In this document: piece after piece, positions 36,801-57,379 of the stretch
Position numbering within the stretch: position 1 is the stretch's first letter
Layout: every line of letters begins with the position of its first letter
Source of the DNA: Bdellovibrionota bacterium
GTDB lineage: Bacteria > Bdellovibrionota_C > UBA2361 > JBGSMV01
Length of the DNA stretch: 64,000 nucleotides
Assembly (NCBI GenBank): GCA_041739995.1
Contig: JBGSMV010000046.1
Location: 1 to 64,000 of the forward strand
Direction: 5' to 3'
Notes under the pieces: model-generated
The model's database searches: none
What the model saw: only the letters and a program-made list of their open reading frames with translations
Told to the model about the DNA's origin: nothing
Made by a program: the position numbers and the translations under genes

Positions 36801-36803
36801 GAG

Positions 36804-37541: not shown

Positions 37542-38596
37542 TAAATCCTCATCCCTGAATCTGCCATCCCCGAATCAGATTGCGCATGCGCCGCGAGCAT
37601 CCGCTTCAGCTCTTCGTATACCAAGTCACTGCCAAGCTCGTACATGCATGCGTTTGTACCTGTAGGGCAGACCTTTCCGCCGTGACGCGCACACGGCTTG
37701 CAGGCCAGTCCCTCTTTCTCGACTACTGCGGCAAAAGGGTTATTCCACGGGCCAAACCCGAACTGGGGCGAGGTCGCACAAAAAACCGCTACAGTCGGCC
37801 GCTTGAGCGCAGAAGCAACGTGCAAAGCAAAGCTATCATTACAGACCACGCCATTTGCATGAGCCACACAGCACAAGAACTCTTCTATTGAAGTCTCCCC
37901 GCAGAGATTTCGGACCTTCAGCCCCTCGGCGACCCGATCAGCGGTCTCTCTTTCGTCGCGGGCGCCAAGAATCACGACCTCCACGCCCTCCTGGGCAAGA
38001 CGCATGCAAAGCTCGCGGTAACGCTCCCAGGCCCAACGTTTCGTATACCAAACACTTCCCGGCACCAGCACGATGTAGCTCCCTTGCTGTGGTAGTCGCT
38101 CACGTACTGATTCTCGCATCTGAGCAAGCGGAATGGGGTGTACTCGGAGAGACGTATCAAAGCGAGGGATCCCACTCTGATCCGAGAGGATTGCCAAATT
38201 TCTAAGTACATCGTGCGAGTACTCTGAGCGACCGATAGTGCGGTGAAAGGCAAACGGAAACGCCGCCTCTTTAAAACCGATACGCTCAGGTATTCCAGAG
38301 AGCATCATCAACAGCGCCGTGCGCCACGATCGATGTAAAACAAACGCGCGCGCAAATTCGCGCTCTCTCAAAGTGCGAGACAGCGCTATGAGCCCACCAA
38401 CTCCGGCGTGCGCACCGCGCTTATCAAAGGTAAGAGTACCGGCTACCAAAGGGTCGGAACGAAAGATTGGCTCAGCCAGAGGTGTCGAAAGCGTCCATAG
38501 CTCCGTATCAGGAAACAGCGTACGAATCCCTGCAACCACTGGGGTTGAGAGAAGGGAGTCTCCCAAAAAGCTGGTCTGAACCAAAAGCGTGCGCAT
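37541..38596 (-). CDS. GT9 LPS heptosyltransferase (WaaF-like)
   Basis: QTSFLGD..L.TP, PGSVW.TKRW, NDSFALH.ASA, CKPC..HG..CP. Confidence 0.9.
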   Translation of the reverse strand: MRTLLVQTSFLGDSLLSTPVVAGIRTLFPDTELWTLSTPLAEPIFRSDPLVAGTLTFDKRGAHAGVGGLIALSRTLREREFARAFVLHRSWRTALLMMLSGIPERIGFKEAAFPFAFHRTIGRSEYSHDVLRNLAILSDQSGIPRFDTSLRVHPIPLAQMRESVRERLPQQGSYIVLVPGSVWYTKRWAWERYRELCMRLAQEGVEVVILGARDERETADRVAEGLKVRNLCGETSIEEFLCCVAHANGVVCNDSFALHVASALKRPTVAVFCATSPQFGFGPWNNPFAAVVEKEGLACKPCARHGGKVCPTGTNACMYELGSDLVYEELKRMLAAHAQSDSGMADSGMRI

Positions 38597-38646
38597 GCAA
38601 GAACATTAGAGGTTAATTAGGGAGCTTCTAAAAACTCCAGTTTTAG

Positions 38647-38740
38647 ATCTTGGTGCGCTTTGTGGTCTTCGTGGTTAAATCGAATTTGGTCAATTTCTAG
38701 AGTTTATTTGCACCACTAAGACCATTAAGACCACTAAGAT
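38647..38740. repeat. REP-like inverted element built from 9-bp ACCACTAAG units
   Basis: ATCTTGGTGCGCTTTGTGGTCTTCGTGGT ... ACCACTAAGACCATTAAGACCACTAAGAT (23/29 complementary). Confidence 0.7.
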
Positions 38741-39709
38741 TTAGCTTTTCAGCGGCTCCCTAGATAAATTGCTTAACAGATCTCGAAGCCAGTTGATTTC
38801 TCGTTCGATGCCAGTGGCAAGCCCAATTTTTGGTGAAAATCCGAGTTTGGCGCGGATTAGCGATGTATCGGCGCTGGTATGGCGCGCGTCCCCTGCCTGT
38901 CGTTCGCTTCGCTTAATATCAAGCGGGCCGACATGCTCGGAAATTATGGCAAGCACCTCATTCACAGTTGCCTGAACGCCGCCACCCACATTGAACACCG
39001 CTCCGCTCTCACCGAGCTGAGCGGCCAGCACATTCGCCTCAACGATATCATCGATAAAAGTGAAGTCCCGTGACTGCTCACCATCACCGTAAAGCGGCAC
39101 CGGCTCACGCGTTAGGCCTGCGCGAATGAACTTATGAAAAGCCATGTCGGGGCGTTGCCGTGGCCCGAATACAGTAAAATAGCGCAACGATACGGTGGGC
39201 ACATCGAACTCTTGCGCATACAGCACCATCAAGTGCTCAGCCGCGAGTTTGCTCACGCCGTAGGGACTTACTGGTCGAGGACGCTCGCTCTCTGGGGTAG
39301 GAAACTTCTCTGCATCTCCGTACACAGAGGAGCTAGATGCGTATACCAACTTACGGAGAGAGGAACTCCCTTTAAGTGCTTCAAGCAGTCTCTGAGTGGC
39401 GAGAATATTATGGTCTGTATAGGTCTGAAAGGTAGTGCCCCAACTCGCTCGAACGCCAGCCTGGGCAGCCTGATGGAACACCAGTTCCGCACCGCCAACC
39501 CACTCATTAACCGGTCCGTCGAAGAGACTCGCCTCAATGAAACGGAAGCTTTTGTGTTGGCGGGCCCCAATGAGATTTCGTTCTTTAATGGCTCTCGGGT
39601 AGTAATTCAGAAAGGTATCAACCCCAATGACCTCGTGACCGTCACTAAGCAGGCGATCGCACAAGCTTGAGCCAATAAATCCAGCAGCGCCGGTAACTAA
39701 GCACTTCAT
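38741..39709 (-). CDS. NAD-dependent epimerase/dehydratase (UDP-glucuronate 4-epimerase-like)
   Basis: VTGAAGFIG, HQAAQAGVR, ASSSSVYG, YGVSK, LRYFTVFGPRQRPDMA, RDFTFIDD. Confidence 0.93.
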   Translation of the reverse strand: MKCLVTGAAGFIGSSLCDRLLSDGHEVIGVDTFLNYYPRAIKERNLIGARQHKSFRFIEASLFDGPVNEWVGGAELVFHQAAQAGVRASWGTTFQTYTDHNILATQRLLEALKGSSSLRKLVYASSSSVYGDAEKFPTPESERPRPVSPYGVSKLAAEHLMVLYAQEFDVPTVSLRYFTVFGPRQRPDMAFHKFIRAGLTREPVPLYGDGEQSRDFTFIDDIVEANVLAAQLGESGAVFNVGGGVQATVNEVLAIISEHVGPLDIKRSERQAGDARHTSADTSLIRAKLGFSPKIGLATGIEREINWLRDLLSNLSREPLKS

Positions 39710-39936
39710 ATTTCCCATATTCTCCAGGTGCCCCCTAAGCTATAGAAACGTCTCAAGAGGAGCAACCGCAGGTCCGTTATAGCTGTTAGCATGCTGACCG
39801 GCCCGTTCGGGGCCACATTGGACCTCTGGGTCGGGACGAAGAGACGGATTCGGCTAGTTCCCCCGGAGGCCTATGGGTAGCGAGGAATTTTTGCACGATA
39901 TCAGCCTCGGCGAGCTAATTGAATTTAAGGGGTCGA

Positions 39937-41304
39937 ATGAAGGCGCAGTCCAGTGATGAAAATGCTCCGTTTGTGATGCTTCGGGGAGACGATGCTTCAT
40001 TTTCGGCTATCACTTCGTTGCTGGGGCGCTTCGCCCATCGCGTCGAGCTTGTACACGATCTCGACCAGGCTCGAGAACTCGTTCAGCATCCTCTGCGTCC
40101 AACCCAAGGGCTCCTGATACCGCTTCGCTTACACGACGACAGCTCAGGAATTAAAAGTTGCCTGGAGGCCAAGGCCGATCCTCTGCTTTCTCAAGCACCA
40201 GTCGTCGGACTCACGCCTTCACGCGATCGCGCCATCTTACAGAGTTTCTACGGTGCGGGAGCGGACAGTGTGATACCTGTTCCCTTTGACGCTGAGGCGC
40301 TTTTTTTTCAACTTGACGCGTTAGTGCGAGCCTACCGCAGCATTGCTGAAATCTCGGCAGCGGGGAAAGACACGTTGGCTCTCTCAAAGGGCGCGGTCGC
40401 TGCCCTCGACGCCACTCAAGAAGCCATTGTCCTATTTGACACTGACTACAGCCCGGTCTTCGCCAATGCGGCAGCCCGTTCTTACCTTATCGCTGAAAGA
40501 GGCATCACACCCGATCAGCTCTCGAAACTTTCGAATGAACTGAAACCTAGTTTGCGCGCAGCGCTTACCGGAAAAGCTCTTCCCACATCTGAGAGCAAGA
40601 AGAATTCTCTGGCGGCTACATTTACGCAACTGCGCGGAGAACGAGGGCTTCCAATTGGCGTAGCCGTACGGCTCGCCCACCTCGCTGACATCGAGTATTT
40701 AAGCCACAACCTCGAAATTGCCTTAAGATCCCAAGCACTTTCGTTACTTGGATCTGCTGCTCTTTTAAACTCCCTTACGCGTGCACACGGGGGCTACCCC
40801 TTAACGCCTCTGCATCAGTTTTTCTCTTCTATTTCCAAAGAAACTCCCCTCACTCCGCTTGGGCCCTTACTTACGGCGCTTACAGAAGTGCTCGATAGCG
40901 TACTCCCCGCCTCCCTCGAACTCACGGTCCACGTTGAGGGAGAGCCTACCGTTTCCCTTCGACCAAGTGACGCCACGCGTCTCGTTGGCCACTTGCTGCT
41001 TTATACGGCAATGCGTTGCGGAAAAGACGGCTCAATTGCCGTAACCGCCGAACACGATCCCAGCGCCAAGGTCGTCAGTCTTTTGATCGTCGGCGAACAC
41101 GGCAAGACGCGTCTTGGCGTTCAGAGGGACTATGTCGAAGAATGCTTGAGCAACGCCCAGGGGACCCAAAAAGGCTCGGATGGGGAAAAGCTCGTGTTTG
41201 GCCTAGAAGCAGCGCAGACAATCGCCGATCAATACCACCTACAGCTTGAGTACAAAACAAACGCCTCGCATACGAAGGTGCGCATGCAGGTCTCGTGTAG
41301 CTAG
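39937..41304 (+). CDS. Degenerate REC-PAS-kinase-like signalling protein
   Basis: REC-like fold (KADPLL...PVVGLT, GADSVIPVPF) lacking the Asp and Lys; PAS-like AIVLFD..VFANAAA; HATPase-like tail without H/N/G boxes. Confidence 0.55.
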   Translation: MKAQSSDENAPFVMLRGDDASFSAITSLLGRFAHRVELVHDLDQARELVQHPLRPTQGLLIPLRLHDDSSGIKSCLEAKADPLLSQAPVVGLTPSRDRAILQSFYGAGADSVIPVPFDAEALFFQLDALVRAYRSIAEISAAGKDTLALSKGAVAALDATQEAIVLFDTDYSPVFANAAARSYLIAERGITPDQLSKLSNELKPSLRAALTGKALPTSESKKNSLAATFTQLRGERGLPIGVAVRLAHLADIEYLSHNLEIALRSQALSLLGSAALLNSLTRAHGGYPLTPLHQFFSSISKETPLTPLGPLLTALTEVLDSVLPASLELTVHVEGEPTVSLRPSDATRLVGHLLLYTAMRCGKDGSIAVTAEHDPSAKVVSLLIVGEHGKTRLGVQRDYVEECLSNAQGTQKGSDGEKLVFGLEAAQTIADQYHLQLEYKTNASHTKVRMQVSCS

Positions 41305-41676: not shown

Positions 41677-43038
41677 TTAGCGCGAGAGTAACCACCACAC
41701 GACCATCAAGATCAAGGCCAGCACCATCAAGAGACCGACGGTGAGCCAAATCTTGTCTTCCAGTGATGAACTTACTTCATCTTCGCTCACCTCTGACGAG
41801 TACCGTGACCGACCGCTCGCATCAAATCCGCCACGGGGGCGCACGAGCGATGGATCAATCGCTACAGTCTGATCGGCTCTCACATCATCCAGTGACCCGA
41901 TCTTTCCAAATGGCAAACGATCAGGATGACGCGGAGTAGGCGGTGCATCTTGGGTATCATCCGCTTCCCCCTCTCCCCAAGGAAAGGAGCGCGTTGGATC
42001 TCGCCGCCCACCAGTCACATCTCCGGCCATATCACCTGACGCCTGCATCTCAACGGACTCGTTCGCCGAGTGCGAGCCACCTGAAGGACGTGTCGCGCGT
42101 GCGGCTTCTACCCAGCCGCCTTCAGTGCTTTGCTCATGCGCGGAGGGAGTCGAAAAAGTTCCTGCAGAATGTGCGTCCCCTTGGGCGCCACTCGCGTGCG
42201 CAAGCGAAGCTCCAGAGAGTGTGCCTGCCTCGTTTGCTGAAATAGGCGATTGGCCCGGTGGCGCACTGCGAGGATCTCCTGCTGGTCCTTGCCCGAGCAG
42301 GTCTCGACTGCTCTCGCCACCACGGCGTCCACGATCCGCATCGGGCGAATCTGACGGGCTGCGCTTCGCACTCACCACGTCATTGAAGATGATCCGGAAA
42401 TGCTCAACCACTAACTCATCACGGTCCTGCAACACTCGCGTTTGGCTCAAGGCTTGGCCATTCAGCTCCACCAAAATATCTTTGGAGATAGTGAACGCCG
42501 CGACACTCTCACCACGACGCTCCACCACGAGAGATGGCAGGTCGTGCATATCGACACTTAGCTGGAGATCCGCATTCTTTCCGCCAACGACGAGAGCGCG
42601 CCCAAACTCCGGCACCGGATACTCGGACTGAAATGCCTCGCGCGAGAACACCAAAAGAGATCTGATGCCAAAACCCATTCGATCGAACTCAGCGCTCCCT
42701 CTTCGCTCCGCGTCCTCAACTTCGATCGCTACATCACCTAGCTGCAAGTAATCGCCCGGCTTTATCAAAAGCCAGACTTGTGTGGGGACCTTTTCGCCAT
42801 TCAACCAGGAGCCGTTGGTGCTACCTTCGTCCCGGTAGGTCCAGTGCTGCCCTACCCCCCGAAGCAGACCATGCACTCGAGAGACTGCGCTGCTTGGAAG
42901 CGTGATACCCCCAGGTGGCGGTTCTCGACCAAGCAGCACTTCGTCGCCCTCGACAATGGCGAGCTGCCGGCGTGAACGTTGGTCAGGGGTGCCCCCAGGG
43001 GCTTGGACGATTTGAAATAACACTATAGGGCGAGCCAT
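41677..43038 (-). CDS. FHA-domain protein with a second FHA-like domain, a disordered linker and a C-terminal TM anchor
   Basis: LLGR..., VSRVHG, DEGSTNGSWLNG, GDYLQLG; second repeat LNGQ..L.DRDEL; terminal hydrophobic helix. Confidence 0.88.
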   Translation of the reverse strand: MARPIVLFQIVQAPGGTPDQRSRRQLAIVEGDEVLLGREPPPGGITLPSSAVSRVHGLLRGVGQHWTYRDEGSTNGSWLNGEKVPTQVWLLIKPGDYLQLGDVAIEVEDAERRGSAEFDRMGFGIRSLLVFSREAFQSEYPVPEFGRALVVGGKNADLQLSVDMHDLPSLVVERRGESVAAFTISKDILVELNGQALSQTRVLQDRDELVVEHFRIIFNDVVSAKRSPSDSPDADRGRRGGESSRDLLGQGPAGDPRSAPPGQSPISANEAGTLSGASLAHASGAQGDAHSAGTFSTPSAHEQSTEGGWVEAARATRPSGGSHSANESVEMQASGDMAGDVTGGRRDPTRSFPWGEGEADDTQDAPPTPRHPDRLPFGKIGSLDDVRADQTVAIDPSLVRPRGGFDASGRSRYSSEVSEDEVSSSLEDKIWLTVGLLMVLALILMVVWWLLSR

Positions 43039-43179
43039 AGGGGGCAAAATAAACCTCAACAGCCCAAAGGTACAATAGCTCAAGCTTCGATCTATGCATT
43101 TGAAAGATAGGGACCAGATCCGGAGGCCGGGGCACATATCTAGGCCCCCTTCTCACGCATGAGGGTCCAACATCGTGCC

Positions 43180-43479
43180 TCAGGTGCTTCTCCGACGCGA
43201 AGAAGGTTGTTGCCGCTCTAACTCCGCAAGAACAGTGGCGACCGCCTCAAATAATTCTGCAGGAATAGACTGATCGAGCTCGAGCTCCCCAAGCATACGG
43301 GCGAGTCCAGAGTCCTCGCGCACGGGAATGCCATAGCGATGTGCAAGCGCCACCACTTGATCGGCATGCATGTGTTCGGCGGTCACATTCACCGCCGGGG
43401 CTGCTCCTCCAGGGGTTCCTTTCTCTCGCGCCTGATATTCAATCCCCACCGCTCTGCGGTAACGCGCTTCTGCGGTCAT
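43180..43479 (-). CDS. Stand-alone FlhB/SctU C-terminal (FlhB-CC/FlhX-like) domain
   Basis: RAVGIEY..AP.V...AD.VV.LA..YGIPV.ED..LAR.L..LELDQSIP.ELFEAVA.VLA. Confidence 0.88.
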   Translation of the reverse strand: MTAEARYRRAVGIEYQAREKGTPGGAAPAVNVTAEHMHADQVVALAHRYGIPVREDSGLARMLGELELDQSIPAELFEAVATVLAELERQQPSSRRRST

Positions 43480-46400
43480 CGGCCCTCCTTCGGAGCACCT
43501 CGAACACCCTGTGGCGACTTCTCAATAAGTGGATTTTTAGACCTACTCTGCCCTTCTGTAGCTTCTGTCCGTGCTTGATCGGGTCGATCTGCCCTTTGTG
43601 CGTAATCAGACGATCCCTTTGATCCCTCCTTTCCCAGTCCGGAAGGATACGGTGGCATCTGCGGGATTGAGCTTCGCTTCCGCTCTGCCACACCCTGATG
43701 CACTTCACCGGGATGCACAGCACCGGGAGCAAATGAACCCTGAGCGCGGGGAAGGACGGGAGCCACGGGTGGGATGGGGTTCTCCACCTCTGAGCTAACC
43801 CGCAAGGCAAGAGATCCTCCCGTCAGGCGATTTTCAAGAACGCTACGAATTTGTTCGCTCATCGACCAAATTCGTAGAGGTTTTTCAAAAAGCTGGCAGC
43901 GATCTCTCGCCAATTCCTTGCTTTCCCAATGCTGTAGGTCGGCAACATACCCAAAGATATTTACCGCTGGATGGATTTGGAGGATCGATGCAACAAGGTC
44001 TGTGGCTACGGTCCCGACACGATCAAGATCAATGAGGACCAGCGCTCGCACATCACGTACTTGGCGCAGCATCTGCAACAAGCGCTCGCGAGTCAACGGA
44101 ATAGCCACGTCCGCGTGCGGCCCTTCGAAGGAAGATCGCAGCGAATAGCCAATCGCAGAATCAATCTCAAACATGAAGACGTGAGTGAACTCGGTAGCTC
44201 TGTCGCTGCCGCCCACACCCACATGCGTACCGGTCGCCGTCTCGCCCGACACTGCAGGAAGATATACACTAAAGGTCGTACCCTGCCCCTGCTGGGTGCG
44301 CACCGTGATCGCTCCATCGTGCTGCTTTACGATCGAATAGGCAGACGAGAGTCCTAAGCCCGATCCACCGAATCCAAGCCCCGTGCGCGTATCAATATTC
44401 TTGGTGGTGAAAAACGGCTCAAAACATCGTGTTTGGCTCTCTGGCGTCATGCCGGGGCCATTGTCTTCAACTTCGACACGCAGATATTCCCCTGGTGCAA
44501 GTTCGGGATCTACCTCGCCTGATCTAACTTTCACGCGACGAACAAAGACTTTTACCTTTCCGTCGGACCTGCCCTCGAGCGCTTCTTTGGAGTTCACCAA
44601 TAGATTGGTAATGACCTGCTGCAACTGGCTCTGATCGGCAACGATTGGCGGCGCGTCAGAGGTGACATCATACTCGAGCTCAATTCCCGCGCCGAGCACT
44701 GAGCGATAAAGCTCTTTGGAGTCTTCAAGAAAGCTCTGCACTGAAAGAGTGGTAGGGGCAAAACCGCCCTGCATAGAAAAATTGAATAGCTGCTTCACAA
44801 GGCTGGCCCCTTTTGAGGCCGCATCATTAATCATGCGCGCTGACTGAGTGACTCTCTTGTCGTGGCCCATCTGCATCTCTATCAAAGAAGCCTGACCCAT
44901 CACTGCTTGCAGAAGATTATTGAAATTATGCGCCACCCCAGAAGCAAGTAAGCCTGCCATGCGCATCTTGTCGGCATCCGCCATGCGCGCTTCGAACTTT
45001 CTGGCGAGAATTACAGTGGCGATCTCCGTGGCCATGCTGTTCAGCAATGGAAGTTTGCGCTGCACAAAGAATGTCGATGGCACTGCCGGTTCAACTACTA
45101 GTACGCCGACCACTTGCCCCAAAGCGACCAGAGGCACAATGACAATGGTTCCACAGTTCAAGCGCGCAAGCACTCGCCCAAGATCGCCGCATTCCTGCTC
45201 GGCGGAGGCGTCGAATACCACAGGAGATCTGGTGCGAATGGCGCGATCGAGCAACTGATTCTTGGCGCCAAGTTCGACTTGCATGTCCACTACGTGCTTA
45301 CGAATTCCTGGGCCCACACCTGCGGTGCCCATCAAGTGAGAACCACGATTGTTCATCACTCCAAGCCACATGCGCTTGCACGCAATTTCTTCTTGAATTG
45401 AAGGAAAGGCATGCTCGGCCACTTCCTTCAGAGTCATTTGCTTTGAGAGTTCGTGGCTTAAGCGATAGAGCGCAGACAGCGAGCTTGAATGTCTTTTCTC
45501 TGCGGCATAGAGCTCAGCTTGTCGAGCGGCCAATGCGATCTGTGCGCATGCAGCCGAAACAAGATCATAATCATCCGTTGAGTACTGCGCTTCAGTTCTG
45601 CGGAAAAGAACCATGACCCCGAGCACCTGTTCCTCGAAAACAAGTGGCATGATGATGGTGGCTCGAACTCCCTCGCGCCGCGCAAGTTCGACTGCGGCAC
45701 GTGGTTCTTGTTGAATGTTGCTGAGCAACACACCCTCACGGCGGTCGACTGCGTCTCGCGCCAGGGTGTGCTTCCCGATAATCGCGCCGACATCTTCTAC
45801 ATACTGACTGGACAGCCCCTCTGCCGCGACCACTTCCAGCTGACCTGTTGAGGGATCGATCAGTCCGCTAAAACCACAATCACTTCCCGTCGCGCGAATA
45901 AGTGCTCTTAAACCTTTGAGCGCGACCACACTGGGATCCAAATTTAGCTCAAGAGAACGCGCCACTTCATACAGCGCCTCAATGCGACGCCCTTGAGAAC
46001 GAGAACGCTCTTCTGCGGCGCGACGTGCAGTGGTATCAACCCAGAACCCTTCCCAACCCATCAAGCTTGGATTGACCTGATCTGAGCCATTCGCAAAAAA
46101 TGGAATCGCACGCATTAATATCCAGCGCACCTCTCCAGTCAGCTGATTGGTGACCTGAACTTCATCATTGAACTCGCCAAACGGCAGAGAACGCGCGCGG
46201 CGCAATACTCGTCTTAACTCATGTGCTCGAAAAGAGCGTCGCCAACGCGAGGGGGAGGAAAGCAGTTCGTCCGCTGGGAAACCAAACAGGCGTTGGGTGT
46301 CCCCCACAAGTTCAGTCACTCTCAATGCAGGATCGGTACGAACGATCAGGAGCTCTCCGTGCTCTGCGATCCTTCGATATGATGAACGGCGCTGCTCTTC

Positions 46401-47006
46401 TAAATCGCCTGCGGCAGCGTCCGCTCTTTCGGCAACACGAGACTCAATTTCTGAGGGCTTAGAAACAAGACTGAGTGGAGACGACTCCACTTCGGTTTCC
46501 TTCAAGTCAGCGCGATGCTCTGGCGAGGTATAAAAGTCATCCCGCGATCCAATCTCCCTCTCGATACGAAGCCCAAGCAGAGTAGCTGCTAATTCTGAAT
46601 AGGCTCGCTCCTCTCCACGCAGGCGAAGATGCTCATGAATCGTGAAGGCTTCCAAAGCGGCGACCATGCGATCTCCAGCATACACCGGAACTAGCAGATA
46701 CGATTTGACTCCATTCTCTTCGAGCTGCTCTCGAAGCATCGGGTCGATTCGCTGTCGCTGGGGATCGGAGACGAACAGCGGTAGACGCATCGCACGCCCT
46801 CGAAGCGAAGCTTCGCCGGAGCGAATAGTAATTCCTGCGACGGAGCTTGAACTCCAGGATTCGCCACTTTCAGAAAGAAGGATAACCTGGTCGAAATTAA
46901 GAAATTCAGAGAAGAGTTTGGCGACGATCTGCGACGCGTGAGACGTATCTCTGGAGGCAGAGAGCGCTTTGCGAAGCGAGGCCAGAGGTGAAAACGCTTC
47001 AGTCAC
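43476..47006 (-). CDS. GAF-PAS-GAF-GAF hybrid sensor histidine kinase with an atypical receiver
   Basis: LASGVAHNFNN H-box, NLLVNS, DNGPG, FEPFFTTK, GSGLGL; GAF motifs (PLV..EQVLGV); receiver with LIDLD and FEKP. Confidence 0.92.
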   Translation of the reverse strand: MTEAFSPLASLRKALSASRDTSHASQIVAKLFSEFLNFDQVILLSESGESWSSSSVAGITIRSGEASLRGRAMRLPLFVSDPQRQRIDPMLREQLEENGVKSYLLVPVYAGDRMVAALEAFTIHEHLRLRGEERAYSELAATLLGLRIEREIGSRDDFYTSPEHRADLKETEVESSPLSLVSKPSEIESRVAERADAAAGDLEEQRRSSYRRIAEHGELLIVRTDPALRVTELVGDTQRLFGFPADELLSSPSRWRRSFRAHELRRVLRRARSLPFGEFNDEVQVTNQLTGEVRWILMRAIPFFANGSDQVNPSLMGWEGFWVDTTARRAAEERSRSQGRRIEALYEVARSLELNLDPSVVALKGLRALIRATGSDCGFSGLIDPSTGQLEVVAAEGLSSQYVEDVGAIIGKHTLARDAVDRREGVLLSNIQQEPRAAVELARREGVRATIIMPLVFEEQVLGVMVLFRRTEAQYSTDDYDLVSAACAQIALAARQAELYAAEKRHSSSLSALYRLSHELSKQMTLKEVAEHAFPSIQEEIACKRMWLGVMNNRGSHLMGTAGVGPGIRKHVVDMQVELGAKNQLLDRAIRTRSPVVFDASAEQECGDLGRVLARLNCGTIVIVPLVALGQVVGVLVVEPAVPSTFFVQRKLPLLNSMATEIATVILARKFEARMADADKMRMAGLLASGVAHNFNNLLQAVMGQASLIEMQMGHDKRVTQSARMINDAASKGASLVKQLFNFSMQGGFAPTTLSVQSFLEDSKELYRSVLGAGIELEYDVTSDAPPIVADQSQLQQVITNLLVNSKEALEGRSDGKVKVFVRRVKVRSGEVDPELAPGEYLRVEVEDNGPGMTPESQTRCFEPFFTTKNIDTRTGLGFGGSGLGLSSAYSIVKQHDGAITVRTQQGQGTTFSVYLPAVSGETATGTHVGVGGSDRATEFTHVFMFEIDSAIGYSLRSSFEGPHADVAIPLTRERLLQMLRQVRDVRALVLIDLDRVGTVATDLVASILQIHPAVNIFGYVADLQHWESKELARDRCQLFEKPLRIWSMSEQIRSVLENRLTGGSLALRVSSEVENPIPPVAPVLPRAQGSFAPGAVHPGEVHQGVAERKRSSIPQMPPYPSGLGKEGSKGSSDYAQRADRPDQARTEATEGQSRSKNPLIEKSPQGVRGAPKEGR

Positions 47007-47017
47007 GACGAATCAGC

Positions 47018-47806
47018 TTAAGAGAGACTATTTCGTTCAACAATAATAACTCGGGCCCGTTTCACACGGCGCTCTACTTCGCGTAGCGCCAATGCCTCGT
47101 GCAATGCCCTTCTTGCACTCTTGAGGAGTGGATCACCCTCCTCTTCTCGATAATCCCGACGAACCTCATCGGTTGTCATGGACATTTCCCTTAAAAAACT
47201 TCGTCGGTTGAGCACATACTCCACTGCTCCCAGAAGAAGCAGCATTACACCTGCGATGGCTGACAACACGATCAGCTCTGACCGACACCAGTCCAGCAAC
47301 ACTCTCACATCCGAACCAAACAATTCGAATGCAGAGCGAAAGGAGCTGTTTAAAACCAAAAACAACCCGGTGCCCAAAAGGGCTACCATCAGGATTGTCC
47401 GCCATACTCGCAGCATGCCAGTCCACACTGTGCCGAATCCGGCAAAGGGACTACATCGCTCCAACTGCGGACTTAAGAGTGCCCACGCGAAACGCAACCC
47501 GACCTGAAAGAACTCGAACAGCAGTCCTACGAGCGCCCCGGCTCCCAAACTAATTAAAAGAAATGAAAGCGCGGACTCTAGGAAAGAACGAACGCAGCCG
47601 AACCCTTCGGTTCTGACATCGTTAAAACAATAGTTTAGCAAGATTGTGGGGCTTACCCAACCTGACTGCAGCAGCCAGCCTGCACATAGGCAGACTGCCA
47701 AAGCTGCGGCATTTTGCGTTAAAATTCGGCTCCTTACCACCCTACCGCGTTTACGGGCGTCTTCTAGACGGCGCTGTGTCGGGGCGTGTCCTTTGTACTC
47801 AGCCAC
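47018..47806 (-). CDS. flhB: FlhB/SctU export switch protein, TM + CN part only (lacks NPTH and CC)
   Basis: K.H.PT.RRL.DARKRG.V.RS, four TM helices, M.MT.DEVR.DYREEEGDP..KS.RR; ends VKRARVIIVERNSLS. Confidence 0.88.
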   Translation of the reverse strand: MAEYKGHAPTQRRLEDARKRGRVVRSRILTQNAAALAVCLCAGWLLQSGWVSPTILLNYCFNDVRTEGFGCVRSFLESALSFLLISLGAGALVGLLFEFFQVGLRFAWALLSPQLERCSPFAGFGTVWTGMLRVWRTILMVALLGTGLFLVLNSSFRSAFELFGSDVRVLLDWCRSELIVLSAIAGVMLLLLGAVEYVLNRRSFLREMSMTTDEVRRDYREEEGDPLLKSARRALHEALALREVERRVKRARVIIVERNSLS

Positions 47807-48650
47807 CGATTCCTCCTAAAAAAGAGTCAGAATCGGGCTCCTTCTGGCCGTTCTGGAGAGCTTGAGGGCCGCTCTGAGAGGCCTCCGATACCGGCACCAG
47901 AGCGGAAAGTACCACCGCCGGCTGCGCAAGTTGTTGAAGACTCGAGAACAATCCAAGCTGCCAAGAACCGACAGCCATAGTCCACAGCAGCAGTGATTTT
48001 ATGAGAAACACTTCGCTGGTGAATGAGACCTGCGGCATTACTTTGGAAACCCATCCGAAGGCCAGCTCAAGCAAGAGTGCGACGACAGAAAACCACCCGA
48101 CCAATAGAACGCACCACTGCATGGTAGAGACCGTTGCCTGCAAAGCAAACCTACAATACTGAACTACGGAACTAACGCTTGTGACCGGAGACATGCGCGC
48201 ACTCTCCAGGAAGGTCCCGACCAACTGATCGCCAAGCCCTGACAACAACAGCAGTGCCCAGATCCATGCATGCGCAAGAATCGCAAAGGACGGTTCTCCC
48301 TCCATTTGTTCCTTGGCACCTAAGGGATCAACAAAGGCTGACAGGGTTTGGCCACGTACAGTCTCAAACAGCTCTCCCCCCATAGATACCAGCGAGAGCA
48401 CTAACGCGGCGGGAAGTCCTAAACATAATCCAAAGAGAAACTCGCTTATAAAGAAATGCCACTCGAGCGTGACATTCATCGCCCCCGGCCCTATTCCACA
48501 AAACGCGAGTCCCCATGCAAGTGCCATTCGAAGCGCCAGCATCGAGGGTGAGGATCCAAGCGGGAGCAGCGTTAACATCCCCAGTGCGCGAAGCACCAGT
48601 CCCGCCACGCCCACGCCGTAAACCTGGAGATACTCGAAGACGGTGCTCAT
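47799..48650 (-). CDS. fliR: FliR/SctT export gate protein
   Basis: R.LG...LP, EFLFG..LG, GEL.E..RGQ....DP, GWVSK.MPQ; position in the P-Q-R-B operon. Confidence 0.85.
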   Translation of the reverse strand: MSTVFEYLQVYGVGVAGLVLRALGMLTLLPLGSSPSMLALRMALAWGLAFCGIGPGAMNVTLEWHFFISEFLFGLCLGLPAALVLSLVSMGGELFETVRGQTLSAFVDPLGAKEQMEGEPSFAILAHAWIWALLLLSGLGDQLVGTFLESARMSPVTSVSSVVQYCRFALQATVSTMQWCVLLVGWFSVVALLLELAFGWVSKVMPQVSFTSEVFLIKSLLLWTMAVGSWQLGLFSSLQQLAQPAVVLSALVPVSEASQSGPQALQNGQKEPDSDSFLGGIGG

Positions 48651-48910
48651 GACATTTGACCGAAATATACCAGGCTGCTCAGCATGTCCTGCATAAAGCG
48701 AACCAACTTCTCGCTGAAGAAATCTGCTCCGACAATTAAAACGGCGCTGACGGTGACCACTCGCACCAGAAACTGCACTGTCTGTTCTTGAATCTGTGTT
48801 GCTGCTTGAAACACGGAGAGCACGAGACTGACGACACAGCTGACGAGCAGAGGAATTCCGCTTATGATCGCGACAAGTAACAGCCCTTCAGCTACCAATG
48901 TATCAAACAC
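48647..48910 (-). CDS. fliQ: FliQ/SctS export gate protein
   Basis: SG.PLLV...V.LV.SVFQAATQIQEQT..F. Confidence 0.93.
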   Translation of the reverse strand: MFDTLVAEGLLLVAIISGIPLLVSCVVSLVLSVFQAATQIQEQTVQFLVRVVTVSAVLIVGADFFSEKLVRFMQDMLSSLVYFGQMS

Positions 48911-48948
48911 TACTTACTCCCCTTAAGTTCATAACGCCTCTGAAGCGC

Positions 48949-49689
48949 TTACTGATAAGATTGTACGAGTCCTCGTGTGATCAGCAGCCACCCATCGGAA
49001 ACCACCAAAAGAAGAATTTTCAACGGAAGTGCCACCATGATGGGGCTCACCATCGTCATCCCCATGCCGACCAGAAGATTTGCCACGATTAGGTCGACCA
49101 CCAAAAACGGCAATAGCAGCACGAATCCCATCGCAAACGCTTCTTTGATCTCGGTAAGCACGAATGCGGGTAACAGCACTCGAAGCGAGAGCACTTCAGC
49201 AGGAGTGCTCGTCCCCTCACCCTCAAGCGGTTGATCAGACGCGGCACCAAGCTCTTTCAAGGCATGAATTTCTCTCTCTCCGGCATGCCGCTCTAAAAAC
49301 CGCCTAAGCGGTGCGAATACTTCGACTGCCACCTGCCCGGCCTGCTCCATAGAAAGCGCCCGTATATCTCCTGCGGGAAGGGCCTTTGCACATTCATCGA
49401 ATACCGGGGCCATGGCATACCCGGTGATTGCGACCGACATCGCCATCACTACCAAGCCGCTCGGCGTGTGTTGAGTTCCCAATGCGCTGCGAACCATGCC
49501 CAGCACCACACTCACTTTGAGATATGCGGTAAAAAGTCCCATGACCATCGGAACAAGTGCGAACACTGTGGCGATAACGATGAACCACCCAGGGTGTATC
49601 GCTCCCCATTGGCTTCCTGCGAGCTGCGCGGCACCGCTTTGAGCTGAACCGAAGTGTTGCTCGATTCCTGCTATCAGATCAGGCTTCAT
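48949..49689 (-). CDS. fliP: FliP/SctR export gate protein
   Basis: TAYLKVSVVL.MVR.ALGTQ.TP, LLPAFVL.EIKEAF.MGF...LPFLVVDLIVANLL...GM.MVSP...LPLK.LL.V..DGW. Confidence 0.95.
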   Translation of the reverse strand: MKPDLIAGIEQHFGSAQSGAAQLAGSQWGAIHPGWFIVIATVFALVPMVMGLFTAYLKVSVVLGMVRSALGTQHTPSGLVVMAMSVAITGYAMAPVFDECAKALPAGDIRALSMEQAGQVAVEVFAPLRRFLERHAGEREIHALKELGAASDQPLEGEGTSTPAEVLSLRVLLPAFVLTEIKEAFAMGFVLLLPFLVVDLIVANLLVGMGMTMVSPIMVALPLKILLLVVSDGWLLITRGLVQSYQ

Positions 49690-50062
49690 ACGTTTCTCCA
49701 CTTGCTAGATGAAATGGTAGAAGCGTGGTCGTTGAGGCGCGCACTTCAGAGATGTGGGGATGCCCAGAAGCTTCTCTTGTCGTTTTCTGCTCTGCGACTC
49801 CCTTCTCGCTCAGTACTTGAACTCCCCGAGAGGAAGTGGCGAGCATCCACTGCCTGTCCCCCCACTCCACGACAACAAGGCGTTGCTCCCGACCTATATT
49901 GATGGCCTCTCGAATCCGCATACCCACCTCGGCACGTTTTCCAATGCCGATTCTTCGCATGCGCACTGTGCGTACGGTGACTCCCCACAACACCAGGAGC
50001 ACGACGAGAAACGCTGCGCTACGCGCAAGCACTTTCAAATCTTCGGCGTTAAAAATCTCCAT
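49679..50062 (-). CDS. fliO: FliO-like export gate chaperone
   Basis: One TM helix, then MRI.E.INIG.EQRLVVVE.G...WML..S..GV.VL; directly upstream of fliP. Confidence 0.8.
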   Translation of the reverse strand: MEIFNAEDLKVLARSAAFLVVLLVLWGVTVRTVRMRRIGIGKRAEVGMRIREAINIGREQRLVVVEWGDRQWMLATSSRGVQVLSEKGVAEQKTTREASGHPHISEVRASTTTLLPFHLASGETYEA

Positions 50063-50068
50063 ATGTGC

Positions 50069-51127
50069 CTATCTCCTTAAGTATCCCTGCTGATTTCGTG
50101 GCTGCTCTCTATCACCGTCACAAACTTGATATCCTTTGCGGGTGAGTGCTGCTCGCACTTCTCGCAACGATCGTGAAAGTAGATGTCGATCCGCCAATTT
50201 TTCAGGGGCAATCATCATGCTGACTTGGCCCTCGACTGATCGGGAGATCTGCACCTGCACTACTCGGCCACCTTCTAACTGATATCCAAATCGCACCGAC
50301 TTCGGAGCTCCTTGCGCATCTGTTTCGACCCCCGATGTTTCAGAATTTTTCTGTAGGTGTGCAGCAAGGGCCTGTTTCCATTCGAGGACTCTTGCCGACT
50401 CTCCGCGAGCTTCAGGCGCTGACCCTGGTGAATTGAAATTGCGTTGATCTCGACTTTCACTAGAACCCTGCCCCATGCCGGCATTTCCTTCGGAAAGGCC
50501 TGCCAAGTTTGCCAAGTTTGATTCCGGCGCGCTCACGGCGAGCGGCTCCACAGAAGCCACAGATTCTGCAGACGAGCATGGCATTTCGGATTCTTTTAAA
50601 TGCTCGAATGCTCCAGCGCTCGACTTCTTGGTCTTGTCACACTGACGCCGAGAACCGACCAGCTGAGTGAGCTCGTCTGCTTGCGCGAATTCGCTTTGGA
50701 TCGCCTTCTTTCGCCCAAGCACTCGAACCATTTCGTCCAGACACTCTGCTCTTTGACGATGAAGACCAAGACTCTGAGTAGCTTGTGCCACGGTGTCGCG
50801 CTGCTCCCGCAGCTTAAGACCTGCAGAGCTCGCCGCAGTCCGTGCGTCTGCACCAATGTGTTGCGCACGCTTAACGGCTGCTTCGCAGCATTCTAGGATA
50901 AGACGCGGAGAACTATTGGTATGGCCCGGCCGCTCAGATCTCTCCCGTTCAACGCGCGAACGAGCCGCCCCAAACGCCGCTTCAAAAGCGCTGCGCTCCT
51001 GGGCAGCTTGGCTCTCGGTGACTCGAAGCGAAGAGCTTCGCTGGTGAAGTTGCACTTCGGCGTTTCTCACCAGACTTCGCTCGTACTCAGCTCTTCGCTG
51101 CACTATTTCGTTATCGAGCATTTCCAT
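50069..51127 (-). CDS. Coiled-coil (FliJ/SctO-like) protein with a C-terminal FliK/SctP T3S4-like domain
   Basis: N-terminal ~150-aa charged helix; low-complexity linker; C-terminal G..V.VQI....G.V.MMI......LL...L.E.R.AL...GY.V. Confidence 0.55.
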   Translation of the reverse strand: MEMLDNEIVQRRAEYERSLVRNAEVQLHQRSSSLRVTESQAAQERSAFEAAFGAARSRVERERSERPGHTNSSPRLILECCEAAVKRAQHIGADARTAASSAGLKLREQRDTVAQATQSLGLHRQRAECLDEMVRVLGRKKAIQSEFAQADELTQLVGSRRQCDKTKKSSAGAFEHLKESEMPCSSAESVASVEPLAVSAPESNLANLAGLSEGNAGMGQGSSESRDQRNFNSPGSAPEARGESARVLEWKQALAAHLQKNSETSGVETDAQGAPKSVRFGYQLEGGRVVQVQISRSVEGQVSMMIAPEKLADRHLLSRSLREVRAALTRKGYQVCDGDREQPRNQQGYLRR

Positions 51128-51178
51128 CGATCCTCTCCTTGCGAACCGCTGTTGCCGGCGCACTTTCCTTTGAGGTTG

Positions 51179-51565
51179 TTAGGGCTGTGATTGAAGTTTC
51201 TTGAGTGTCCCCTGAAAGCTATCCGCCACCTTTCCAATCATCTCGACTCGCAGATTCAGCTCGCCGGCTTTGATTTGGTACATCAGTAGCTCACGTGCGC
51301 TGAGCGACTTACCTTGCATGGCGGCATCACGAATTCCTAGCAAATCACGGTGGAGCGCTGTATCGAATACGTCGCCAATACTTGCGCCTCTCACACTTGC
51401 ACTTTGCGTAGTTCCTTCTATCCGCGGCTGCTCCTTTACCTTGTCGAGTACCTGCTGGAAACTTGGCTCAGAAGTCACATTCAGTCGTTGTGGTACCGCA
51501 GAGGTGGGCGCAGCCTGTGAAACAGACGACTGTGAAATAGCAAAGGCAGAGGTAATACTTTCCAT
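51179..51565 (-). CDS. SctI (inner rod)-like small protein
   Basis: C-terminus LSARELLMYQIKAGELNLRVEMIGKVADSFQGTLKKLQSQP matches the rod pattern (LL.xQ......EL..KV......L..L..Q); first gene of the export operon. Confidence 0.65.
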   Translation of the reverse strand: MESITSAFAISQSSVSQAAPTSAVPQRLNVTSEPSFQQVLDKVKEQPRIEGTTQSASVRGASIGDVFDTALHRDLLGIRDAAMQGKSLSARELLMYQIKAGELNLRVEMIGKVADSFQGTLKKLQSQP

Positions 51566-51790
51566 AGGGATGCAGCTCCTTCGGGCACGGAGTTTACGGA
51601 TCACCTCACAAGACTTCGGTGACCAGAGTCGAAGCGCTAATCGGAGATTTGGTGGAAAAGTTTCCTCCTGAGCATATAGGCTCAGGCAGCGCGGTAACCG
51701 CCTGGAACGATTTGCAAAAAAAACCACCTTAATGAGGTGTGCAGGAAAACTGCGAGAGGAGTGCTATGAAGGTTGCGCGCCGAAACCGTC

Positions 51791-52864: not shown

Positions 52865-53329
52865 TTATTTTGATTTACGAATCTCAGAAGAGTCAAGGTT
52901 GCCGGCTTCATCACGCGCAGAACCAGACGCTAATTCAGCAAGAGTAGCAATAACTTGCGCATTAAAGTCGCGCTGACGCCGCAGCGTATCTTTAAAAAAG
53001 ACCCGCAGAATCGGAAACATGCAGCGCTTCGCCGCTACAATGAGTGGTCCAATAAATTTGCGATGCGACGACAGCTTCCGCGGAGCAACGAGGTCCACTT
53101 CCCAGAGCTGACACAGTCGTCTAAGGCGCTCAAGCACTTCGTTAGAAACATTAAGGCGATGGCGCACTGGGAGAAACGTTACGTCCTGCACGTAACGCAC
53201 GTCACCTTCCTTAAACGACCCCGAAGCAATCTTCTCTCGCACGCGACCTTGAAGACTGCGTTCGAGCTCCAAGACAGAGACCGGTGATTCTTGAGGAACT
53301 GAAATCCAACCCATAGTCATTAATCTCAC
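52865..53329 (-). CDS. Hypothetical protein resembling the coiled-coil adaptor modules of glycan methyltransferases/glycosyltransferases
   Basis: SSHRKFIGPLIVAAKR....LR......RQRDFN motif; directly downstream of a GT4 gene. Confidence 0.6.
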   Translation of the reverse strand: MRLMTMGWISVPQESPVSVLELERSLQGRVREKIASGSFKEGDVRYVQDVTFLPVRHRLNVSNEVLERLRRLCQLWEVDLVAPRKLSSHRKFIGPLIVAAKRCMFPILRVFFKDTLRRQRDFNAQVIATLAELASGSARDEAGNLDSSEIRKSK

Positions 53330-54652: not shown

Positions 54653-57379
54653 GTGAGAAGTTTGGGCTCGTTTCGCCGAATTCACGACCCCAAGAAAGAG
54701 CCACAGGAAGCCTCTAAGGGGGGGCTGTCTCCTGAGATCTCTCCATCAAGTGCCTCCAAGCCCCGTCGTCCTGGAACTCTAAGCATTCGGGGAAAGACCC
54801 AGCCTATCCAAACTATTCAAGTTCAGGCTTATCAAACCGAGCCGGACCAAAGAGCGGCCCTCCATACGGAGCAGCAAAGCGCCAAGAACCAGGCCAAGAG
54901 TAGCGGCTACCCTGATGTCAAATATAACGAGGAGCATAGAAGTGGAGGCAGCGCTTCCCTCGACGAGGCGCAAGACACCTCATCACTTATCCCGGCTACC
55001 ACTTCCCACGCCACTCGACCGGTCGAGCAAGACCTGGATGCCGGGGATCTCTCTCTTAGTCAGCAAGATCTTGGTTCCCGTGGGCTACAGGATTCGCCAC
55101 CTTCATCTGTCATTCCACAGGGCGAAAGTCTCTTCTCCCGCGCCCTCTCGGACAATGCCCAAGTTCTCGTTTTCTCCTATTCACCTCAACTCAAACGCCT
55201 GGTCTCATGGAGCGGAAACTCCTTGGAGGTCCTCGGTGCCTCGGAATCCTCACTCGTGAGAGATGGAAATCTATTTTTAAGACACGTTCACCCCGATGAT
55301 CGTTTTGGGGTTCTCGCTGCGCTCGAGTGCGCGCTTGAAGGCTCCGCTCCCTATCGCATCGCCTATCGCTGGGTCCGACCAGATCGCAACGAAGTCCGTT
55401 GGCTTTTGTGCCGCGCGGCACTGCAAGACTTCACTCCTGCCCAAGACACGCTAGCGCGCGGTGGCTCAGCGCACGCCGGACGAGTGTTGCAGGTCAGTGA
55501 TGCCAAAAAAGTCGGACCACTTTTTGAGGGAATGATCATCGACGTGTCCGAGACCGGGGCTCGGATTGCTTCGCATCCGGGAGATCAGGAACTGCCGAGC
55601 ATCAAATTCCTTGAAGGCCTCCCTGAGTTATTCTTTACCCTCGACAGAGATTTCCGACTCTCACAGACTAATCGCAGAGAGGCCAAGCGCCACGAAACAG
55701 ATCGCGATAGGTTCGGTCGCAATGAGTCAACTCGAAGCGACTCTAGTCGGAGCGCTCTGCCGTCCTCTCAACATGTTCAGATAGATGCTTTGGACTTTGG
55801 GGACACAAACTTCGATGTCACTCGATTTTCTGTCGGTCGCCCGGTACTCGAAGCCTTTGGCACTGAGACTTTACGACTGCAATATGGCCGGGTGTTTGAG
55901 CAAATTCTGTCCGGGGCACTCGACTCCTACAGAACGCGCCTCAATCACGTTGAACCTCCCCTGATGCTTCAATTGTTTCCCGTATGGTCTTCCTCAGGCG
56001 AGTTCTCAGCCGGAGAGAACCCTGAGAGAACCAGGGGCGAAATCCATGGCATTCTTGGCATTGTCTCGGAGCACTCTGTCGTTGCAGGACTTGAACGCCA
56101 AGTCATGGAACTACGCAAAGCTGAGAGCATGAGATCTCTCGCTTCTGGAGTTTCGCATCATGTGAACAATGTACTTCAAGGAATATTGGGACAGGCGACA
56201 CTAATTCAGTCACATCCAGGCGACACCGCTGCGGTCGCAAAAGAAGCGCTCAGCATTAGCGAACTTGTGCAGCGCGCTTCAGAATTAATGCAGCAGCTGT
56301 TCCTTTTCGATGACAGCGCAGGTGGTAGAGAGACCGCGGTAGACCTGAATCTCGCGGTCATGACCGCAGTAAGCGCCATCGAAGACTTATTTGCCAATCC
56401 TATCGAACTTCAGGTCTCATTCGGGAATCCCCTGCCGGTTTTTGCCAAGCAGCCGGTAGTAGTTGAGCTGATTCAAGAACTGCTTAGAGTCGCGAGAAAC
56501 TGCGCCCTCTCCCCACATCAACCTTCCCAACGAGCAGCATTCTCTCACCGTTCTCCCATAGAGCGCGTCACGAGAAACCATCCTGGTGAATCATTTGCCC
56601 CACATGAGCGGGTAATTCTCTCGGTAAAGACTCTGCATTGCGATACCGCGCCGGTCGATCTCCGAGGCCTTCAGAGTGGAAAGTTTTCACAACTTCTTAT
56701 CGCGGAGCATCCGTCGGGCAGCGAGCCCTCACGCGCTGACGTACAGCGCTCCTCTGCACGTATGGAGTCAGAGCATGGTGCGGATGTCGCATCCGCACCT
56801 TCATCTCCTCTAAGACGCATCCGTAACATTCGCTCGGTCACCAACAACCCCGCTTTTCGTAGAGCCCAAGCCTCCGCTGCGCGCATGGCGGGGACCATTA
56901 CCGTGGCACTTGACGACCAGTCGAATTTCGCCTTTTCGCTTTTTCTCCCCTCAGCAAACGTGGACGAGAATTCTCTTTTCGTTGTCGATCAACACGCCGC
57001 ACCCGAGGTTTTAATCGTCGATGACGATCTCACTATCTTGGGCACGATAGAGCACCTTTTACGGAATTTCGGCTACGAATGCGTCACCACACAGTCGGGC
57101 TCCAGAGCACTTGCGATGGCGCACGCATATCGCGCGTCCCTTAAGCTCGTCCTGCTCGACGCGATTATGCCAGGAGAAGACAGCGTCTCCCTACTCTCCT
57201 CTCTGCAAAAATTGAATCAGAGCTTAAAGATCGTCGGATTTACTGGTGCCGGGTCAGAAACAAGCAGTCTGATGTTAGCAGCGGGGGCTTCTCGCGTTTT
57301 GAAGAAGCCCGTGGAACCTAGTCTTTTGAGAGACGTGCTCCACTCCCTCATTGGAACCTCAAGCGCGATGAATTCATAG
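54653..57379 (+). CDS. PAS-containing hybrid kinase-like protein with an intact receiver and a degenerate ATPase domain
   Basis: PAS (HVHPDDR..YR..RPD...RWL), LASGVSHHVNN H-box, no DxGxG/F/G2 boxes, receiver IVDDD/LLD/KKP. Confidence 0.8.
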   Translation: MRSLGSFRRIHDPKKEPQEASKGGLSPEISPSSASKPRRPGTLSIRGKTQPIQTIQVQAYQTEPDQRAALHTEQQSAKNQAKSSGYPDVKYNEEHRSGGSASLDEAQDTSSLIPATTSHATRPVEQDLDAGDLSLSQQDLGSRGLQDSPPSSVIPQGESLFSRALSDNAQVLVFSYSPQLKRLVSWSGNSLEVLGASESSLVRDGNLFLRHVHPDDRFGVLAALECALEGSAPYRIAYRWVRPDRNEVRWLLCRAALQDFTPAQDTLARGGSAHAGRVLQVSDAKKVGPLFEGMIIDVSETGARIASHPGDQELPSIKFLEGLPELFFTLDRDFRLSQTNRREAKRHETDRDRFGRNESTRSDSSRSALPSSQHVQIDALDFGDTNFDVTRFSVGRPVLEAFGTETLRLQYGRVFEQILSGALDSYRTRLNHVEPPLMLQLFPVWSSSGEFSAGENPERTRGEIHGILGIVSEHSVVAGLERQVMELRKAESMRSLASGVSHHVNNVLQGILGQATLIQSHPGDTAAVAKEALSISELVQRASELMQQLFLFDDSAGGRETAVDLNLAVMTAVSAIEDLFANPIELQVSFGNPLPVFAKQPVVVELIQELLRVARNCALSPHQPSQRAAFSHRSPIERVTRNHPGESFAPHERVILSVKTLHCDTAPVDLRGLQSGKFSQLLIAEHPSGSEPSRADVQRSSARMESEHGADVASAPSSPLRRIRNIRSVTNNPAFRRAQASAARMAGTITVALDDQSNFAFSLFLPSANVDENSLFVVDQHAAPEVLIVDDDLTILGTIEHLLRNFGYECVTTQSGSRALAMAHAYRASLKLVLLDAIMPGEDSVSLLSSLQKLNQSLKIVGFTGAGSETSSLMLAAGASRVLKKPVEPSLLRDVLHSLIGTSSAMNS

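Follow-up and report, generated by a model that had tools for sequence, protein, structure and literature searches.

This work concerns a type III export operon in a 64,000-nucleotide stretch of DNA (GenBank JBGSMV010000046.1, positions 1 to 64,000; hereafter, the window), which is contig C74 of G000, a 3.8-Mb, 91% complete genome from the Bdellovibrionota. The operon occupies positions 51565 to 41677 on the minus strand and, with partner genes on other contigs, makes up what we call system A. The original prediction had described it as co-directional and tightly spaced, and the list of open reading frames (ORFs) bore this out, with every ORF present on that strand and where it had been placed.

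Operon genes and the split SctU

The export gate was identified with Pfam and NCBIfam. As judged by these matches and by the tree described below, the operon encodes SctR (FliP homologue, 48949–49701, E = 2e-51), which falls in a non-flagellar clade, SctS (FliQ homologue, 48647–48910, E = 2e-19), and SctT (FliR homologue, 47799–48650, E = 4e-15). SctU is encoded by two ORFs that share one Bac_export_2 profile of 335 positions: SctU-N (47018–47806), comprising the membrane domain and linker without NPTH, covers positions 3–256 (E = 1e-42), and SctU-C (43180–43479), a 99-residue counterpart of the cleaved FlhB-CC fragment, covers positions 262–333 (E = 7.5e-12). The top NCBIfam match was a non-flagellar model for R, S, T, and both parts of U.

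Alignment showed that SctU-N ends at the strand before the NPTH of FlhB and that SctU-C begins at the strand after it; by this alignment, the break falls exactly at the NPTH cleavage site. Between the halves lies a gene for a CckA-like hybrid histidine kinase (43476–47006; GAF, PAS, GAF, GAF, HisKA, HATPase, and a receiver-like tail) in which the H, N, G1, F, and G2 boxes are all present and which overlaps sctU-C by 4 bases. None of 36 relative system-A loci had NPT in the N-part. Four of these loci are interrupted by contig ends, so that 32 are informative for both halves, and a kinase separates the halves in 31 of the 32, with the H-box motif present in 30 of those 31 kinases. This shared arrangement ruled out a pseudogene or an assembly artefact as the source of the split. 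Two loci, L249 of G106 and L250 of G107, have extra genes between the kinase and sctU-C.

In a tree of the C-domain (90 columns), the system-A C-parts formed one clade (99/99), and the same tree is compatible with either gene fission or capture of a free FlhX-like gene. An FlhX-type gene is a spare copy alongside an intact FlhB; unlike it, the system-A C-part is the only C-domain of its SctU and belongs to a clade of its own. FlhX (HP1575, TIGR00789), a gene of ~90 codons, corresponds to the cleaved FlhB-CC and can function in trans (PMC3040844). The C-fragment of Xanthomonas HrcU is likewise functional in trans, the outcome of cleavage and not the event being what matters (PMC3040844), as is a free FlhB C-fragment in Helicobacter pylori (Wand 2006, as cited in PMC3040844). 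Because HrcU-C works in trans, the split SctU is plausibly functional. SctU-C would dock on SctU-N in trans, giving a switch that is born "pre-cleaved," and the kinase might tune assembly or expression. The NPTH motif is required for binding of the ruler protein (PMC3040844), so system A would have to bind its ruler differently. A naturally split SctU puts directly to the test whether autocleavage sets the timing or is just a maturation step.

The operon begins with a gene for an SctI-like inner-rod subunit of 128 residues (51179–51565), whose start is probably later than that of the longest ORF, at 51565, with the promoter inside the longer ORF. The window protein itself had no Pfam match; PF17001 was matched by 15 of the 19 aligned family members, all below the cut-off (best E = 1.2e-5), and HH comparison of the family gave 97% to a Myxococcales-type SctI, in keeping with the label first given to this gene. 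Since the family also matched one Desulfovibrio-type SctF (HH 81%), rod and needle roles are not firmly assignable. A single-sequence homologue search returned only the protein itself, and the best match of the family among PDB sequences was MxiI (E = 0.38).

The next gene (50069–51163) encodes a 364-residue protein with a coiled-coil N-terminal half and a FliK/SctP-like C-terminal domain. Its earlier FliJ/FliK-like label was half supported, the C terminus giving weak Flg_hook matches in 6 of 19 proteins of its own order and an HH value of 42% to Myxococcales-type SctP, and the FliJ/SctO-like N-terminal half an HH value of 4%. The protein, for which the Atlas gave no usable match, is a probable SctO-SctP fusion. 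FliO (49679–50062) matched PF04347 (E = 1.3e-7), as did all five FliO candidates of relatives; its distribution is patchy, several loci having no such ORF. The last gene (41677–43137), assigned from Pfam/NCBIfam matches and the loci of relatives, encodes an FHA/YscD-cytoplasmic-like protein that carries an FHA/YscD_cpl domain and a C-terminal hydrophobic anchor and has no periplasmic SctD part. It adjoins sctU-C in many, not all, relatives, and its start is probably later than that of the longest ORF, near 43038, the L095 orthologue beginning at the equivalent Met.

Partner loci, phylogeny and the flagellum

The remaining core genes had been expected elsewhere in the genome, and family searches found SctJ, SctQ, and SctV on C5 and SctN and SctL on C36; flagellin, ATPase, FlhA, and secretin genes, correctly reported as missing from the window, were all placed on other contigs. 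Beyond the flagellum, the genome holds two more SctR (C74 and C55), two more SctV (C5 and C47), two more SctJ (C5 and C55), and, on C36, an additional ATPase next to an SctL-like protein. The copies on C47 and C55 belong to a second system, system B. The C5 locus encodes a FliA-like sigma factor, SctJ, SctQ, a small subunit of 109 residues, SctV, and a TPR lipoprotein, which we take, by analogy, to be pilotin-like. Its gene order was retained, with local losses, in the 40 loci read, and both the C5-type sctV and the small subunit were found in 72 of 73 high-quality genomes.

A motif scan of upstream regions revealed a two-part, promoter-like motif, GGAAACTTT-N12-CCGAT, 100 bases upstream of the first gene of the window operon (51639–51665, minus strand) and also before the C5 small-subunit gene. 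The motif was present upstream of 5 of 19 sctI-like genes (0.065 expected), 7 of 39 small-subunit genes, and 4 of 33 sigma genes (0.07–0.14 in shuffles). Strict matches numbered 13 in 1.31 Mb of system-A loci against 0 in 0.63 Mb of system-B loci; there were none in Myxococcales-type loci, and the whole genome had 8 (1–3 when shuffled). The FliA-like sigma factor of system A itself is the likely reader of the motif, a dedicated factor that would co-express the window operon and the C5 locus. System B holds its own J and Q, and system A would need the C5 copies. From the gene complement and the shared motif, we infer that the window operon pairs with the C5 locus. More strict sites lie before unannotated genes of G000 (C5:36375, C19:18349, C20:34073, C48:21951, and C67:756), and the genes behind them are candidate substrates or accessory genes.

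System A is retained across this entire uncultured, Bdellovibrio-like phylum, as surveyed in genomes of one class. FliP-family matches were obtained in 123 of 124 genomes, mostly two or three in each; among 78 genomes searched for FHIPEP, 77 had at least two matches and 63 at least three. The core gene order of system A was the same in its own order and in other orders. Eight genomes (90–97% complete) without a flagellar-grade FliP or FlhA match retain two non-flagellar SctVs. Genomes G012–G017 (family f28; five genomes searched both ways) gave three or four FliP-family matches and two FHIPEP matches at E = 1e-60; their system-B sctV may have been lost or have diverged strongly.

A SctRST tree of 33 rows was calculated under a mixture model with 10 of the 23 system-A rows. 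The reference loci came from named plasmids and from high-GC genomes with a long and a short type III secretion system (T3SS) locus (Mx8-like integrase), to which the label "Myxococcales" was assigned from these published-like loci; the set was without Chlamydia, SPI-2, and Acidobacteria-type systems. System A formed one clade (99/97), was separated by 100/100 from every flagellar row, its own class's included, and was sister to the canonical injectisomes (91/84, unstarred). In approximately unbiased (AU) tests, grouping of system A with the flagellar genes of its own class was rejected (p = 4.8e-5), as was grouping with the long locus (p = 0.006); placement with both Myxococcales-type systems gave p = 0.135. 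The tree and the tests support the initial description of a divergent, non-flagellar T3SS on a deep branch between flagella and canonical injectisomes. Membership in the clade of the Myxococcus xanthus T3SS*, to which the long locus corresponds, was not upheld.

In a SctV tree, systems A and B, the long and short loci, and the canonical injectisomes formed five well-supported clades with a polytomous base; both extra SctVs were non-flagellar (100/100), and L258 fell among FlhA, as annotated. Adding system B to an R-S-U tree did not resolve the base and brought the support for system A down to 72/92. A quick tree joined systems A and B, probably by long-branch attraction, and the mixture-model tree does not resolve whether they group. 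Close SctR homologues carried the NCBI labels Bdellovibrionales, Deltaproteobacteria, and Dadabacteria. Sequencing runs listed for this DNA included none of RNA and four of DNA, all from one study of hot-spring and biofilm metagenomes that is possibly the source itself.

G000 has a complete and separate flagellar set, for which some gene names were taken from sequence and gene order: fliLMNOPQR lies on C60, flhB-flhA-flhF-flhG-fliA and flgFGAHI-KL on C36, flgC-fliEFHIJ on C53, and fliG on C81. The window operon has the same fliO-P-Q-R-flhB gene order as the flagellar export gate, but the flagellar copy, on C60 and C36, does not group with it. We regard it as very improbable that the many flagellin-like proteins of the genome are handled by this operon as a further flagellar export gate or as a paralogue in decay. 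Such proteins are indeed numerous (24 Flagellin_N matches, 23 above the cut-off, scattered, many of them 400–670 residues long), a FliO and a FliK-like domain are present, and the non-flagellar sctL-sctN pair (G000:C36:17394–19518) stands back to back with the flagellar flhB-flhA; yet the operon has an SctI-like subunit, its genes are intact and their order is conserved across orders, and the operon type is retained in the eight genomes without flagellar-grade FliP/FlhA. No linkage to fliLMN, rod, or hook genes was seen among the 36 system-A stretches censused. A second flagellar gate as such was largely ruled out by the AU test and by the separate flagellar fliPQR, and by the same two results the FliPQR of the window do not lie inside flagellar clades, nor need the flagellum rely on them.

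The co-occurrence of FliO and SctI had been taken as the sign of a hybrid system. FliO has been published in both non-flagellar T3SSs of M. xanthus (PMC12248157) and therefore is not diagnostic of a flagellar gate, so the hybrid argument does not hold.

Outer membrane, needle and mode of action

Among 48 genomes searched for secretins, 45 had two and 3 had one, and none had a third. In G000, in which the context was read, gene order places both in type II secretion and type IVa pilus operons. No FlgH or FlgI paralogues were found as a secretin stand-in, and the FHA proteins match only the cytoplasmic part of SctD/YscD. In the original proposal, the absence of a dedicated secretin from system A was supported; its needle-less part is uncertain, since a co-regulated SctF/HrpA-like candidate is present.

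This candidate is the 109-residue subunit of the C5 locus. Its family matched the small proteins that head both Myxococcales-type loci (HH 97%, E = 1.4e-11; reversed control 6%). Of 15 Myxococcales-type homologues, 7 matched T3SS_needle_F, 6 HrpF, and 2 HrpA, all below the cut-off, and comparison of these homologues with one true SctF gave 57%. The SctF identity of the C5 subunit is transitive only and uncertain. No needle was matched when the small-subunit families were searched against PDB sequences; an AlphaFold model showed a two-helix chain of low confidence (predicted local distance difference test score, 63.5), and all that a fold search with it retrieved was long helices of a generic kind (best Z 5.7). 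Both the long and the short Myxococcales-type loci start with such a small gene (L159:8569–9135, L161:16011–16796, and homologues), and these genes are candidates for the "missing" needle of the Myxococcus T3SS*. Abby & Rocha 2012 (PMC3459982) reported no SctF in Myxococcales and predicted an ancestor with SctF and without secretin, of which they found no example. The 109-residue subunit provides a concrete needle candidate that is testable in a model organism, M. xanthus.

Could system A then be a working injectisome, with a surface needle or pilus of the SctF-like subunit reaching out through a borrowed or unrecognised outer-membrane channel? The position beside canonical injectisomes in the free tree, the needle-model matches of the Myxococcales-type homologues, needle_F and HrpA clusters among the Atlas neighbours (scores 0.85–0.87, a lead only), and the conserved ruler-like domain and TPR lipoprotein are in line with this. 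We nevertheless consider it unlikely, because a third secretin was found in none of the 48 genomes, SctD was not found, and no translocon was recognised in the loci read, where no family search for tip or translocon proteins, which evolve rapidly, was run. Canonical injectisomes (Ysc, SPI-1, Hrp1, Hrp2, Rhizobiales, and Desulfovibrio types) share SctRSTUV, J, Q, N, L, and an SctI-like subunit with system A; unlike them, system A has no SctC and no complete SctD, keeps FliO, has a split SctU, and lies outside their clade, and in it neither tip nor translocon was recognised.

Taken together, the data are probably best explained in full by a non-flagellar, secretin-less export gate with a split SctU, with its partners encoded elsewhere and working as an inner-membrane exporter. 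System A likely exports across the inner membrane only. Such an exporter would assemble its SctI-like and SctF-like subunits into a short periplasmic rod or filament, with the SctP-like domain setting the size of this structure, and its cargo might either act in the periplasm or pass the outer membrane by way of another system's channel (a type II or type IV pilus secretin). The exporter probably serves cell-contact behaviour.

Several observations weigh against this explanation. No substrate or chaperone-effector pair is known for system A, and the window operon and the C5 locus were adjacent in none of 40 sctV-centred stretches. The periplasmic domain of SctD (PF16693) was not found above the cut-off in the 91%-complete genome. 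The C5 small-subunit family matched needle models in 0 of 33 cases and had no direct match to a true SctF. Non-flagellar ATPase matches numbered one per genome in the own order and two in several genomes of other orders; because the own order has one such ATPase for two systems, SctN may belong to system B or be shared. In G068 (L251), the SctU halves are adjacent with no kinase between them, which shows that the split form can exist without the kinase.

The nearest known systems are the M. xanthus T3SS* (long locus, MXAN_2434–2464) and T3SS(2) (short locus, MXAN_5643–5654). In common with these, system A is non-flagellar, has no secretin, encodes FliO and an SctI-like rod protein, carries a sigma gene of the FliA type next to sctJ and an SctU-C gene standing free downstream of sctU, and has a small subunit whose C-terminal motif recurs in theirs; two systems per genome and Tad pili in the same cell are also shared with M. 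xanthus. The differences are that system A forms its own clade, is spread over three loci, has a kinase inserted, and has SctO and SctP apparently fused, that its host is flagellated, and that a Tad operon is genetically linked with the second system. In addition, Myxococcales-type long loci have a whole SctU and, besides it, a further C gene, whereas the system-A SctU is without its own C-domain and NPTH.

In M. xanthus, the Kil pilus recruits T3SS* to lyse prey (Herrou et al. 2025, PMC12075869). System A could work in the same way, with a Tad pilus recruiting it to prey contact and lytic factors being delivered, in which case the phylum would be one of contact predators. We hold this alternative to be possible but doubtful. 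The parts list of system A is nearly identical to that of the Myxococcales-type long locus (small subunit, TPR, sigma, I, J, L, N, O, P, Q, FliO, RSTU, and a separate U-C), a sister position to the Myxococcales-type pair was not rejected by the AU test (p = 0.135), and homologues bear NCBI labels such as Bdellovibrionales. The genome also encodes three Tad ATPase operons, a type IVa pilus, type II secretion, and at least seven CpaB-like genes; however, membership in the long clade was rejected (p = 0.006), the Tad-linked sctV is that of system B and not of system A, and the Tad secretin N-domain was not found in the genome. Neither a cultured member nor predation data were found. By analogy, a prey-contact role of system A is plausible, and a role in contact with other bacteria is possible. 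System A is not flagellar and is neither a member of the T3SS* clade nor a canonical injectisome; it would work most like T3SS*.

Our literature search, outside which most subscription papers lay, found no report of systems A or B or of a naturally split, kinase-interrupted SctU. In the supplement to the journal version of PMC12248157, the two UBA2361 rows read list one FliP and no non-flagellar FliO. A needle-less T3SS has also been proposed for Bradymonadia (PMC11509652), and in the parts of PMC10469934 and PMC10196010 at hand T3SS is treated for Myxococcota only.

System B and neighbouring genes

In system B, a Tad operon (cpaE, cpaB, cpaF, tadB, tadC) runs directly into sctV in 20 of 20 loci, 7 of which extend into FHA genes and sctJ; in G053 (L207), the run is contiguous from cpaB to sctU-N. 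The G000 copies lie at C47:24880–40477 and C55:16994–31970. Genes for a PP2C phosphatase, FHA proteins, a Ser/Thr kinase, and a kinase-like HEAT protein accompany the system. Its SctU is N-terminal only, stopping well before NPTH, and its SctT has diverged beyond the reach of the SctT profile. Another stand-alone FlhB-C (FlhX-like) gene, of 93 residues, lies at G000:C42:68850–69131 and may serve the flagellum or the truncated SctU of system B. According to a review, co-occurrence of Kil/Tad and T3SS* appears restricted to Cystobacterineae (PMC12428579); in contrast, our 20 loci have a T3SS sctV within a Tad operon in another phylum.

More tentatively, the phylum may hold two further independent deep secretin-less lineages, system A with its SctF/SctI filament corresponding to the predicted pre-secretin ancestor and having a pre-cleaved switch that a co-translated sensor kinase gates in place of autoproteolysis, and system B, in one operon with a Tad pilus, being genomic evidence of a single Tad-T3SS contact machine. 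If this were true, the presence of this small subunit in Myxococcales would imply that their "needle-less" T3SS is not needle-less. The origin of injectisomes from the flagellum rests on few deep branches, mainly Myxococcales, to which this phylum would add two, both in cells that are mostly still flagellated.

Around the window operon, a receiver/PAS-like gene (39919–41304) converges on its end, followed by epimerase and heptosyltransferase-like lipopolysaccharide genes (35643–39718), a linkage shared by many relatives of the same order. A gene for a 154-residue protein of no known family (52865–53329) directly precedes the operon in the window, as it does in many of the own-order relatives. 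A second hybrid kinase-like gene near the operon start (54653–57379; PAS, HisKA-like, receiver) had no HATPase match and possibly encodes a pseudokinase. The ORF at 1542–2681 is presumably integron-type integrase-like.

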